From positions 14,410 to 78,409 of the IMG/VR virus record IMGVR_UViG_3300032238_000977: a stretch of 64,000 nucleotides of DNA; one strand, 5' to 3'. Below the pieces are notes generated by a model that was not told where the DNA came from, made no database searches, and saw only the letters and a list, made by a program, of their open reading frames with translations. The stretch's first letter is position 1. Each line of letters opens with the position of its first letter. This document shows positions 10,336 through 16,077 of the stretch, one piece after another. The stretch comes from a virus. The position numbers and the translations under genes are program-made.

Positions 10336-10344
10336 CTAGGTCTT

Positions 10345-10415
10345 TCAGGCTCGCCACCAATTCTTTAACTGGAAATTGGAAACCAGGCGGGGAGAGTATC
10401 CCATCCGCACCACCA
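10345..10415 (-). ncRNA. wcaG RNA motif-like structured RNA
   Basis: TGGTGCGGATGGG...CCCGCCTGGTTTC-CAATTTCCAGTTAAAGAATTG-GTGGCGAGCC: two UGGYG motifs and a CUGG/CCAG pseudoknot, upstream of an epimerase as known for cyanophage wcaG RNAs. Confidence 0.7.
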
Positions 10416-10460
10416 GTTTTTTAAAGAAACTGGAAACTTTTAAGAGGGTCATATGACTCC

Positions 10461-11139: not shown

Positions 11140-11168
11140 ATTCGCTATTCGCAAATAGCGAATAGCAA

Positions 11169-11256
11169 TACGAGTGGGTGGATTCGAACCACCTCAAAGC
11201 CGCTAATCTGGCGGAAAGAGTTTATAAGACTCCTCTGACTACCAAGTCTCACTCGC
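11169..11256 (-). tRNA. Atypical tRNA, anticodon TAT (nominally Ile), long variable arm
   Basis: GCGAGTG/CACTCGT acceptor, GACT-TGGT-AGTC D arm, GGAGT-CTTATAA-ACTCT, CCGC-CAGATTA-GCGG V arm, GGTGG-TTCGAAT-CCACC. Confidence 0.8.
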
Positions 11257-11304
11257 ACGAAAGTTGCCTTGAGGCAACTTATAAGACCTATATGTGGTCT
11301 TAAA

Positions 11305-14086: not shown

Positions 14087-14114
14087 TATACTCTTTTTTG
14101 AGTATTTATGCAAG

Positions 14115-14186
14115 TGGGCGATACTGGATTCGAACCAGTGACCATCTCCGTGTAAAGGAGGTGCGCTACCGCTGCGCTAATCGCCC
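14115..14186 (-). tRNA. tRNA-Val (TAC)
   Basis: CTCC-TTTACAC-GGAG; TTCGAAT T-loop. Confidence 0.95.
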
Positions 14187-14191
14187 TTAAA

Positions 14192-14254
14192 TGGATGGTA
14201 GGTATTCCCACTCGGATGTTAAGAAGGTGATTAACCGTTAACCCCGACCATCCA
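14192..14254 (-). ncRNA. Candidate structured RNA (three-way junction, tRNA-like)
   Basis: Closing stem TGGATGGT/ACCATCCA; internal stem CGGGGTTAA/TTAAC-A-TCCG. Confidence 0.5.
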
Positions 14255-14255
14255 A

Positions 14256-14327
14256 CTCCCCCGGCAAGATTCGAACTTGCGACCTGGAAATTAACAGTTT
14301 CTCGCGCTACCGCTGCGCCACAGGGGA
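14256..14327 (-). tRNA. tRNA-Asn (GTT)
   Basis: GAAA-CTGTTAA-TTTC anticodon arm. Confidence 0.95.
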
Positions 14328-14331
14328 ATAA

Positions 14332-14401
14332 AGGAAGTTACTGGACTTACACCAGTTACGAGGGCATTGTCTGCTTGTCTTGATTCTTTGACTTAACTTC
14401 C
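14332..14401 (-). ncRNA. tRNA-like RNA with non-canonical loops
   Basis: GGAAGTT/AACTTCC acceptor-like stem stacked on ACTGG-TGTAAGT-CCAGT; GTC/GAC D-like arm; only GCA-GACAA-TGC as anticodon-like arm. Confidence 0.6.
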
Positions 14402-14403
14402 GC

Positions 14404-14458
14404 GATGGGGCAAGTGTGATATACCTCATAAGGATATAACAGGGACTTACCCTCTATC
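14404..14458 (-). ncRNA. Candidate long imperfect hairpin RNA
   Basis: GATAGAGGGTAAGT...GTTATATC/GGTATATCAC...ACTTGCCCCATC. Confidence 0.45.
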
Positions 14459-14485
14459 ATTTTATATATGGAGATAAACTCCAAG

Positions 14486-14559
14486 CGTCTTGGGAGGGAC
14501 TCGAACCCCCGACCAACTCATTAGAAGTGAGATGCTCTATCCAACTGAGCTACCAAGAC
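14486..14559 (-). tRNA. tRNA-Arg (TCT)
   Basis: CTCA-CTTCTAA-TGAG. Confidence 0.95.
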
Positions 14560-14563
14560 ATAA

Positions 14564-14628
14564 GTAGGTTCCTATCGCCGCCACTCCTGAACCTACCGAA
14601 GGAGAGTGTCGCAGTTGATTTCTCAACT
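14564..14628 (-). ncRNA. Candidate H-type pseudoknot RNA at transcript 5' end
   Basis: AGTTGA-GAAA-TCAACT hairpin; CACTC(T)CC/GGAGTG stem whose loop GTAGGTTC pairs with 3' GAACCTAC (8 bp). Confidence 0.55.
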
Positions 14629-14633
14629 CTGAT

Positions 14634-14662
14634 ATTATACCAGTCCTTATGAAACTGGTCAA
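14634..14662 (-). promoter_or_regulatory. Sigma70 promoter
   Basis: TTGACC-N17-TATAAT. Confidence 0.8.
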
Positions 14663-14665
14663 GTG

Positions 14666-14745
14666 TGCCGTGTGGTTGTGAATCTAAATCAAACCTTTTT
14701 GATAAGTGCCCCACTGGATCTTATCTAAAGTTTTGAACCACGGCA
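14666..14745 (-). ncRNA. Candidate rod-like structured RNA
   Basis: TGCCGTG/CACGGCA closing stem, TCAAAACTTT/AAAGGTTTGA, GATAAG/CTTATC. Confidence 0.5.
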
Positions 14746-14747
14746 AG

Positions 14748-14821
14748 TGGGAAATCCTGGACTCGAACCAGGCACCTCACGATTATCAGTCGTGCGCTCT
14801 AACCAACTGAGCTAATCTCCC
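14748..14821 (-). tRNA. tRNA-Ile (GAT)
   Basis: CACGA-CTGATAA-TCGTG. Confidence 0.95.
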
Positions 14822-14824
14822 ACA

Positions 14825-14913
14825 CGGAGGATGTTGGATTTGAACCAACGGAGACCCGTAAAGATCTCAAGAACTTAGCAGGTTCCCGCTTTAAGCCACT
14901 CAGCCAATCCTCC
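14825..14913 (-). tRNA. tRNA-Ser (GCT)
   Basis: GGAAC-CTGCTAA-GTTCT, long V arm. Confidence 0.95.
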
Positions 14914-14915
14914 AA

Positions 14916-14988
14916 TGGGTCAAGTGAGACTCGAACTCACGACTTACAGGTTAAAAGCCCGCTACTCTACCAACTGAGTTATTGACCC
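14916..14988 (-). tRNA. tRNA-Lys (TTT)
   Basis: GCGGG-CTTTTAA-CCTGT. Confidence 0.95.
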
Positions 14989-14992
14989 AAAG

Positions 14993-15074
14993 TGGGCAGG
15001 GAGGGATTTGAACCCCCGTAGGCAGAGCCAGCGGATTTACAGTCCGCCTCCATTAACCACTCGGACACCTACCC
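14993..15074 (-). tRNA. tRNA-Tyr (GTA)
   Basis: GCGGA-CTGTAAA-TCCGC, long V arm. Confidence 0.95.
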
Positions 15075-15084
15075 ATAAAACTTA

Positions 15085-15140
15085 AAGGCAGGTGCGGTAT
15101 CTCCTTTCGGTGCCCATGCTCCTTTTACTTTCCTTGCCTT
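15085..15140 (-). ncRNA. Candidate structured leader RNA of the tRNA operon
   Basis: AAGGCA(A)GG/CCTGCCTT closing stem, purine-rich internal loop, CC-GAAA-GG cap. Confidence 0.5.
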
Positions 15141-15150
15141 CAATGAGTTT

Positions 15151-15179
15151 ATTGTATCACTCCTTAGGGCAGTCGTCAA
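15151..15179 (-). promoter_or_regulatory. Sigma70 promoter of tRNA operon
   Basis: TTGACG-N17-TACAAT. Confidence 0.8.
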
Positions 15180-15370
15180 CCTGCTGTTGCTTCCTTACGA
15201 GCAGTCTTTTCAGCGGTGATTTCGTTACGACGAACTTTTACAAGTTTGGAAATTTCTTGAAGTGCTTTACGAGCACGAGTTCCTGCAGATCCATTACCTG
15301 CGACGAACTTTTCATCTTCAACTTGCCAAGCTGCAACTGCATCTGTGAGTTGTTGTACTGTTTCCGACAT
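15176..15370 (-). CDS. Histone H1-like (Hc1 family) small basic protein
   Basis: EKFVAGNGSAGTRARKALQEISKLVKVRRNEI matches the Hc1 GNxxAGTRARK pattern. Confidence 0.7.
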   Translation of the reverse strand: MSETVQQLTDAVAAWQVEDEKFVAGNGSAGTRARKALQEISKLVKVRRNEITAEKTARKEATAG

Positions 15371-15441
15371 AATAATTCCTTTAATATAGGTATGTGTTTA
15401 TATATGTAAGAAAGGGGGGGGACAATCTCCCCCCTAACTAA

Positions 15442-16077
15442 TCAGACTTCTACTTGAACTAGTCGAGAAGCATAATCATGGGCATAAGATGTGCGAGCAC
15501 CATGATGCCCCCAACCAATCCAACTGTACGCATAGTCCATGTAAGAGTAGATAGACTTTCCAGGTTTTTTCATTCTATCTTCAATATTCTTCCATTGAAC
15601 TTCATTTGTGAGATAACGAAGTTGCGTTTGAAGTGCTGATGGCGAACCACCAAACTTCTTAGCGAAATCACCCAATCCATAATAACGATTAGCAGATGTC
15701 CATTGAATCAAACCATAACCGCCGTAGCAGTTGCGGTATGACGTTATACTACCACCTTCGCAAACACTAGATTGGAATGTTGATTCCTGTTTAATGTTGC
15801 CCATGATGGTAGCAAGGGCGTTTTTATCTCTAATTCCAATGTCCTGGAAATAATCCAGGGCTACATTTTCATTTTCATTACACCCTTTACAAATTAACCT
15901 TTTATCTTTTGGTTTTTCGGGAGCAACCTCTTTGGTCGCTGTCGTTGTATCAAACTCCCTAATAACAGAAAATGGTGGAGGACCACTCAATAGAGGAGGA
16001 AATACTACAGGCAGTGTTGCCGTACTGGTTGTAACCGATGCCAAGAGAGGCAAGGCTACTGTAAAGAAATTTTGCAT
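15442..16077 (-). CDS. Phage tail-type lysozyme-domain protein with N-terminal hydrophobic/signal segment (putative endolysin)
   Basis: ALATIMGNIKQES and GYGLIQWT motifs. Confidence 0.75.
   Translation of the reverse strand: MQNFFTVALPLLASVTTSTATLPVVFPPLLSGPPPFSVIREFDTTTATKEVAPEKPKDKRLICKGCNENENVALDYFQDIGIRDKNALATIMGNIKQESTFQSSVCEGGSITSYRNCYGGYGLIQWTSANRYYGLGDFAKKFGGSPSALQTQLRYLTNEVQWKNIEDRMKKPGKSIYSYMDYAYSWIGWGHHGARTSYAHDYASRLVQVEV

Follow-up and report, generated by a model that had tools for sequence, protein, structure and literature searches.

The 64,000-nucleotide (nt) stretch of DNA analyzed here (hereafter the window) is part of a 78-kb viral contig from IMG/VR (IMGVR_UViG_3300032238_000977), approximately 38% complete, which comes from a freshwater T4-like cyanomyovirus with Synechococcus phage S-SRM01 as its nearest cultured relative. 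On the minus strand, between positions 14114 and 15074, lie seven tRNA genes on which ARAGORN and Rfam agree, in the order Tyr, Lys, Ser, Ile, Arg, Asn, and Val when read as RNA. Some of the spacers between them are short (Tyr-Lys, 2 nt; Lys-Ser, 0 nt; Ser-Ile, 2 nt). The long spacers of the array (15075-15150, 14560-14746, 14329-14484, and 14187-14254) together house six elements of 55-83 nt, named E1 to E6, which are the subject of this study (Table 1). The full order in the RNA sense is promoter-E6-Tyr-Lys-Ser-Ile-E5-promoter-E4-Arg-hairpin and A/T box-E3-E2-Asn-E1-Val.

An original prediction, made from the letters of the window, had described a tRNA operon with a structured RNA in each of these spacers, and much of that layout was borne out. 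The six elements do lie at exactly the predicted coordinates, in spacers bounded by ARAGORN and Rfam calls, and all of them form self-contained folds, with paired ends in general and as a pseudoknot instead in E4. They abut the tRNA ends as claimed, with gaps of 0-6 nt, and the linkers upstream of the tRNAs are 4-6 nt long and U/A-rich. Two elements, E6 and E4, indeed begin at predicted transcription starts, behind sigma-70-like promoters. The claim that the elements are GC-richer than their surroundings holds in general (0.37-0.50, against 0.358 for the window) but not for E3, which at 0.37 is scarcely above the window. The tRNA array is likewise real, but it is not a single operon, as at least two promoters are predicted within it. 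The upstream one, with a -10 region partly retained among the nearest relatives, is predicted to drive E6, the Tyr, Lys, Ser, and Ile genes, and E5, while the internal one is co-conserved with E4. None of the tRNAs of the window encodes its CCA, so RNase Z-type 3' processing is expected.

Table 1 Features of the tRNA array and its spacer elements, listed in the RNA sense
Feature	Position in window	Strand	Basis or remark
Sigma-70-like promoter TTGACG-17-TACAAT, TG-extended	15179-15151	-	Predicted start is the E6 5' end
E6, predicted 5' leader of tRNA-Tyr here	15085-15146	-	Family pattern and covariation
tRNA-Tyr(GTA)	14992-15074	-	ARAGORN and Rfam
tRNA-Lys(TTT)	14915-14989	-	ARAGORN and Rfam
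tRNA-Ser(GCT)	14824-14914	-	ARAGORN and Rfam
tRNA-Ile(GAT)	14747-14821	-	ARAGORN and Rfam
E5, rod-like RNA	14664-14746	-	0 nt after tRNA-Ile; covariation
Internal sigma-70 promoter TTGACC-17-TATAAT, 11/12 matches	14662-14634	-	Predicted start is the E4 5' end
E4, promoter-proximal leader	14564-14627	-	Conserved promoter; pseudoknot covariation
tRNA-Arg(TCT)	14485-14559	-	ARAGORN; hub of the recurring module promoter-E4-tRNA-Arg-E3
Small variable hairpin, then A/T box (AUAUAUAAAAU), immediately 5' of E3	14459-14484	-	Comparative
E3, 55-nt hairpin-type RNA	14404-14458	-	Covariation and family pattern
E2, tRNA-shaped RNA	14333-14401	-	Folding and conservation; 4 nt upstream of tRNA-Asn
tRNA-Asn(GTT)	14255-14328	-	ARAGORN and Rfam
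E1, three-way-junction RNA	14192-14254	-	Folding z = -2.1
tRNA-Val(TAC), final gene of the array	14114-14186	-	ARAGORN and Rfam

Single-sequence folding gave z-scores of -3.1 for E5, -2.7 for E3 together with its upstream hairpin, and -2.1 for both E1 and E2; the weakest were those of E4 (-1.2, with the pseudoknot left unscored) and E6 (-0.5). As these values are modest, the case rests on comparative data. The expectation that the RNAs would be undescribed was confirmed in Rfam 15, where no family matched any spacer element, either at the gathering score or at E ≤ 10. The homologous loci of phages RSP15, S-RIM8, P-SSM2, and S-SKS1 gave matches only to tRNA, wcaG, and manA, all located elsewhere. 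The relaxed, intron, and mitochondrial modes of ARAGORN made no minus-strand call in the spacers and only chance calls on the plus strand. The core motifs were not found in the text of papers; it should be noted that the 10,006 candidate viral RNAs (csRNAs) of PMC10690425 lay outside this comparison and may list the families.

Relatives were collected in two ways. Among 80 related loci retrieved through the flanking 211-aa protein, E3 was present in 14, E4 in 8, and E6 in 14, with nucleotide identities of 79-99% that often exceed the identity of the anchor protein itself. The tRNA species next to E3, E4, and E6 change from array to array in these loci, and the modules thus appear to shuffle in the manner of tRNA genes. 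In pattern scans of IMG/VR, E6, E3, and E4 each matched more than 119 contigs, these counts being lower bounds, and E5 matched 82. Cultured phages carry them as well: E3 is found in S-SRM01, S-CREM1, S-RIM8, and S-SZBM1; E5 in S-RIM32, DSL-LC03, and S-RIM8; E4 in S-SKS1, SynMITS9220M01, P-SSM2/P-SSM5, and S-SCSM2R; and an E6-like RNA in Ralstonia phage RSP15 and Cobetia phage Carin-5. Judged from their alignments, E3, E4, E5, and E6 represent four unrelated, widespread families of phage RNA with compensatory changes in their helices. E2 and E1 lack this support: E2 is conserved without covariation, and E1 has a single homolog. In S-RIM8 (L084:1501-1635) and in one other locus (L490), E5 is joined head-to-tail to E3, with no spacer, immediately before tRNA-Ala, which shows that modules can be concatenated.

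In the E6 family, the outer stem (P1) is followed by a purine bulge of 12 nt that does not vary (AAGGAAAGNAAA) and by the helix P2, which carries an AU bulge; the distal arm varies from a GNRA hairpin up to approximately 35 nt (a GAAA-capped hairpin in the window). The sequence of P1 is free to vary while its pairing is maintained. P2 is formed by 5'-XGGAGN[AU]GG with 5'-CCN'CACCY, where the X-Y pair is A-U in 52 sequences and C-G in 16, and the N-N' pair is A-U in 34, C-G in 31, and G-C in 4. Over 70 distinct sequences, 94% of the cells are paired, against 37-50% with slid partners, and the covariation score is 0.43, against 0.05-0.09 when slid; none of 500 shuffles reached 0.43. The family spans cyanophages and phages of distant hosts (Ralstonia, Cobetia). 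A scan of one genome from each of 185,579 prokaryotic species in GTDB gave only five matches, so E6 is essentially a viral RNA. All five lie on contigs of metagenome-assembled genomes (L513-L517; 2.6-65 kb, four of them below 8 kb) assigned to Alphaproteobacteria, TM6, Patescibacteria, Spirochaetota, and Berkelbacteria, and these are probably mis-binned phage contigs. A tRNA precedes E6 in 37 copies and follows it in 36; about one third of the copies occupy an entire tRNA-tRNA gap, and 27 of the 102 have no tRNA within 700 nt.

E3 is built of stacked stems of 3, 8, and 6 bp with conserved internal loops and a 7-nt apical loop. Its cells are 99.4% paired (29-47% with slid partners), and 6 of the 17 pairs show compensatory changes over 59 sequences. 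Pair 8-50 is G-U in 56 of these 59, just as pair 18-91 of E6 is U-G in 58 of 70; read from the other strand, such dominant G-U pairs would turn into A-C mismatches, and the fold is therefore that of the tRNA-sense RNA. E3 adjoins E2 in the window, and elsewhere it stops 1-3 nt short of a tRNA; 65 of 118 copies have a tRNA 5' end next to their 3' end, with 12 different tRNA species involved. On its other side, tRNA-Arg lies 26-41 nt upstream in 69 copies (TCT anticodon in 49, ACG in 20). The A/T box is found upstream of E3 in 84 of 110 distinct copies and, in some, belongs to a full TTGACA-17-TATACT promoter. The box may be a -10-type promoter element, and E3 may often start a transcript. In phage S-CREM1, a 713-aa open reading frame (ORF) annotated as "RNA binding protein" (L511:330-2471), for which no Pfam match was found, follows E3-tRNA-Ala and precedes a MoxR ATPase gene.

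E5 is closed by a terminal stem of 6 bp. Its middle helix covaries, and conservation is seen in the 13-nt loop of its hairpin (AUCCAGUGGGGCR) and in a 17-nt bulge on the 3' side. Whole blocks of the middle helix are exchanged (e.g., CAAAAC/GUUUUG for CAGAUU/AAUCUG). In 43 sequences, 95% of the cells are paired, against 28-34% when slid, with compensatory changes at 7 of 19 pairs. Of 50 copies of E5, 34 begin 0-1 nt past the 3' end of a tRNA, and a -35-like motif (TTGAC/CTTG-type) follows within 12 nt in 20 of 44.

E4 differs from the others in its setting. In the window, a GAAA hairpin comes first and then an H-type pseudoknot, in which the 6-bp stem leads to the loop CCUUCG and the 8-bp stem to the conserved loop GCGGCGAUAG; across the family, a GAAA or GAGA hairpin is joined by the linker UGCGR to the pseudoknot, and the loops CCUUYG and GCGGCGAUAG are conserved. 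Both pseudoknot stems are 99.5% paired in 10 sequences (19-51% when slid), with 8 compensatory pairs, and 12 of 19 pairs are compensatory in a set of 101 sequences. E4 is always accompanied by a sigma-70 promoter of its own. The 3' end of E4, which in the window stands 4 nt ahead of tRNA-Arg, adjoins a tRNA 5' end in 68 of 117 copies, stopping 7-10 nt before tRNA-Arg(TCT) in 57 and before tRNA-Pro in 11. In 41 of the 117, no tRNA is present within 700 nt. Of the 44 copies that lack a tRNA in the 60 nt downstream, 43 are followed by an ORF start within 170 nt (41 of them at 7-81 nt), and the encoded proteins form at least 12 unrelated clusters; in P-SSM2, for instance, E4 sits between hsp20 and the following gene. 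The constant promoter and the varied ORFs downstream identify E4 as a portable promoter-plus-leader cassette. Its most likely mode of action is in cis, on the transcript that carries it, as a 5' stabilizer or as an antitermination or translation-control leader, and its position ahead of protein genes means that release by RNase P is not its general fate.

E4 may be comparable to HK022 put, to 5' stabilizer hairpins, and to the H-type pseudoknot riboswitches (preQ1, SAM-II). It shares with promoter-proximal leaders a start at the predicted transcription start, a hairpin plus H-type pseudoknot, conserved loops, and varied cargo, but it has no sequence or Rfam match to them and no evident expression platform. 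A riboswitch of the H-type class was rejected, as E4 precedes tRNA-Arg, tRNA-Pro, and the unrelated ORF clusters alike and shows no such platform.

The two remaining elements have tRNA-like layouts. In E2, a 7-bp acceptor-like stem is stacked on a 5-bp stem with a 7-nt T-loop (UGUAAGU), and a 3-bp D-like stem is present; a stunted 3-bp arm with a 5-nt loop replaces the anticodon arm, and the D-loop lacks GG. E2 occurs in approximately 54 IMG/VR contigs, and in all of them tRNA-Gly(TCC) lies 35-38 nt upstream and tRNA-Asn(GTT) 4-6 nt downstream. The 70-nt core of E2 hardly changes across these contigs while the flanks vary, and all substitutions fall in predicted loops, a pattern that indicates purifying selection. 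A canonical tRNA was rejected for E2, given the absence of an RF00005 match at E ≤ 10 and of a minus-strand ARAGORN call, and the stunted anticodon arm. E1 is a three-way junction in which a terminal stem of 6-7 bp meets an arm of 13 bp and a hairpin of 5 bp (4-nt loop); it is placed 0 nt after tRNA-Asn and 5 nt before tRNA-Val. It recurs in the same Asn-E1-Val context in a single other contig (L502), with two substitutions, both in loops, and would be a rare tRNA-shaped relic or novelty. Global alignments of E1 and E2 to the tRNAs of the window and to a non-canonical tRNA-like family gave z ≤ 3.2. A descriptor of an acceptor-stem and T-arm minihelix, scanned over 3.9 Mb of array-rich loci, returned E2 along with many tRNAs that ARAGORN does not call; no wider class lacking an anticodon emerged.

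A recurrent 72-nt tRNA-shaped gene that ARAGORN does not call was also seen in related loci (e.g., L038:5180-5251, L102:1219-1290, and L155:9730-9801). Its anticodon loop (CUGUUAA) is of the Asn type, its T-loop (GGCAGUA or GAGCGUU) is non-canonical, and its D-loop lacks GG; it occupies seemingly "empty" gaps of these arrays.

All four covarying families are coupled to tRNAs. Within 700 nt of distinct copies of E3, E4, E5, and E6, 1266 tRNAs are co-oriented with the element and none is in the opposite orientation. This co-orientation, together with the flush tRNA ends, makes excision by the tRNA-processing enzymes a reasonable inference. The comparative data support the view that the spacer elements are discrete, conserved, structured RNAs rather than junk. 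We propose, with moderate confidence, that the long spacers encode structured non-tRNA RNAs that are co-transcribed with the tRNAs and, with the exception of E4, released with their ends clamped. In such a scheme, transcripts of the array would start at no fewer than two minus-strand sigma-70 promoters; RNase P, cutting at the 5' end of the downstream tRNA, would free the 3' side of an element, and an RNase Z cut, or the transcription start itself, would set its 5' side. The product would be a discrete RNA whose ends are clamped by a closing helix and which would resist exonucleases. The array as an RNase P/Z processing scaffold, as originally put forward, is thus reasonable on its geometry for E3, E5, E6, E2, and E1 and fails for E4. 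For the further suggestion of an anti-defense arsenal of decoys or ribozymes, no evidence was found.

Stretches that are unpaired yet invariant, among them the purine bulge of E6 (12 nt) and the hairpin loop of E5 (13 nt), suggest recognition of each RNA by a specific partner, which is probably a protein. We consider it possible, though doubtful, that at least one family acts in trans as a phage-specific RNA delivered by tRNA processing, either as a protein sponge or cofactor or as a new catalytic RNA. The best candidate is E6, which is nearly exclusive to viruses, is found in both cyanophages and phages of Proteobacteria, and keeps its invariant bulge between covarying helices.

Several observations weigh against the proposal of co-transcribed and released RNAs. 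E2 shows no covariation among its approximately 54 contigs, and E1 has one homolog only. The position of E4 before protein genes and the copies of E6 remote from any tRNA indicate that tRNA processing is not a universal route of release. The closing helices lie 1-6 nt from the RNase P site, where they could hinder cleavage just as readily as be exploited by it. Clustering of the proteins encoded around the 102 copies of E6 revealed no conserved neighbor (at most 13 loci per cluster), which leaves E6 without a candidate partner. Release by processing, stability of the products, and a role in trans are all predictions. Contigs from three metatranscriptome studies (RNA libraries that possibly contain DNA) cover relatives of E2, E3, E5, and E6 but not of E1 or E4 at 90% likeness, and were counted neither for nor against.

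A serious, if unlikely, alternative is that the elements are purely cis-acting leaders and trailers of the precursor that are degraded after processing. They would then stabilize the transcript, insulate tRNAs from misfolding, time or guide RNase P/Z, or resist termination as put does. The promoter in front of every E4, with tRNA-Arg, tRNA-Pro, or an ORF shortly downstream, fits this explanation, as do the start of the E6 of the window at a predicted transcription start, the conserved A/T box upstream of E3, and the -35-like motif shortly after E5, which is expected of a 3' end structure. However, E6 and E5 are very often squeezed between two tRNAs with no room for a promoter, and 27 of the 102 E6 copies have no tRNA within 700 nt. 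The long unpaired stretches that stay invariant across distant phages, and in particular the E6 bulge retained from cyanophages to Ralstonia and Cobetia phages, favor specific recognition over generic insulation. It is improbable that the spacers (E1 and E2 at the minimum) are tRNA pseudogenes in decay or neutral remnants of tRNA turnover. In favor of decay, the layout of E1 and E2 is tRNA-like, the 7-bp terminal stem being stacked on a hairpin of 5 bp, the tRNA content differs greatly among related arrays, E1 has only one further contig, and E2 shows no covariation. Yet the E2 core has stayed near-invariant between varying flanks, with changes confined to loops; neither element reaches E ≤ 10 against the Rfam tRNA model or receives a relaxed ARAGORN call on the correct strand; and E3 to E6 covary and are not tRNA-shaped.

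Self-cleaving ribozymes that trim the adjacent tRNAs, whether hepatitis delta virus (HDV)-like (theta) or of another class, are a very improbable explanation. Theta ribozymes do occur beside phage tRNAs, and E4, whose helices cross, shares with them a compact pseudoknot next to tRNA genes in Caudoviricetes. E4 was nevertheless rejected as an HDV-like or theta ribozyme: between its stem 2 5' strand and its stem 1 3' strand there is only one nt to hold the P3/L3/P1.1 that this class requires, and P4 is also missing. E4 is located upstream of the tRNA, with a promoter of its own in front. Elements 5' of tRNAs stand where RNase P already cuts, no Rfam ribozyme family matched at E ≤ 10, and the core motifs of hammerhead, twister, and pistol ribozymes were not visible. 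Least probable of all would be Y-RNA-like partners of the Ro60/Rsr ring protein or elements acting as DNA, such as miniature inverted-repeat transposable elements or recombination sites. Y RNAs (YrlA, RF02553) are likewise small, have paired ends, and sometimes carry tRNA-like modules, and paired ends are also typical of inverted-repeat elements. Y RNAs can be RNase P substrates (PMC4201824). The YrlA model gave only weak matches in the window (15-23 bits, against a threshold of 69), which overlapped true tRNAs. A Y RNA identity was rejected because no TROVE gene or domain was found in the 78-kb contig (38% complete) or in five complete genomes carrying E3, E4, E5, or E6, and because the motif GNCGAAN0-1G/GGUCCGA (PMC4201824) was not seen in the 5' strands of the terminal stems of the six elements, which were inspected by eye with no formal scan. 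As for elements acting as DNA, the strand-specific G-U pairs, the compensatory changes, and the strict co-orientation with tRNAs all argue against them.

For processed RNAs released from a tRNA array, as we propose, the closest precedent is rnaC and rnaD of phage T4, which are analogs and not relatives. In T4, tRNA-Arg(UCU) is followed after 1 nt by rnaD and after a further 6 nt by rnaC, both annotated as small stable RNAs and thought to arise by tRNA-enzyme processing of this kind. Such RNAs beside tRNA-Arg are therefore not unprecedented in kind. Like the elements of the window, rnaC (species 1, 139 nt) and rnaD (species 2, 119 nt) are non-tRNA RNAs co-oriented within a phage tRNA cluster and placed flush with tRNA ends beside tRNA-Arg(UCU), and the core promoter-E4-tRNA-Arg(UCU)-E3 echoes the T4 order tRNA-Arg(UCU)-rnaD-rnaC. 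In contrast to them, the elements of the window are half as long (55-83 nt) and belong to several unrelated families, and E4 also serves as a leader of protein genes. A search of T4 positions 69500-73500 with nhmmer, using the family profiles together with E1 and E2, gave a best E of 0.12 and no detectable similarity to rnaC or rnaD. The function of rnaC and rnaD is still unknown (PMC9697503). Neither has an Rfam family of its own; rnaC (L512:1409-1502) aligned weakly to a tRNA-Sec-like Rfam model (17.5 bits, E = 0.92).

Phage tRNA clusters are commonly regarded as devices for codon usage or against nucleases and as nothing more. On the comparative evidence given here, a large share of the length of this array consists of other conserved RNAs that recur in hundreds of uncultured and several cultured phages, with several RNA families coexisting in one array. 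Each of the four covariation-backed families is present in at least one cultured phage (S-SRM01, S-RIM8, S-RIM32, P-SSM2, S-SKS1, RSP15, and Carin-5), and the 50-year-old question of what T4-type stable RNAs are for becomes testable outside T4. Should one of the families indeed act in trans, tRNA arrays would also serve to express a set of small phage RNAs that has so far stayed hidden.

Other features of the window were recorded along the way. On the minus strand at 10343-10441 lies a full-length wcaG RNA (Rfam RF01761, 99.4 bits), a cis-regulatory motif already known from cyanophages, its function unknown. Beside tRNA-Met(CAT), the minus strand at 11168-11257 encodes a 90-nt tRNA-Ile that is absent from the Rfam tRNA calls at the gathering score; its anticodon, UAU, is unusual for bacteria-type AUA decoding. 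Finally, a strong G6/C6 terminator-like hairpin (15416-15434, minus strand) is located downstream of the gene for the 211-aa protein (15442-16077) and upstream of a histone-H1-like ORF (15176-15370).

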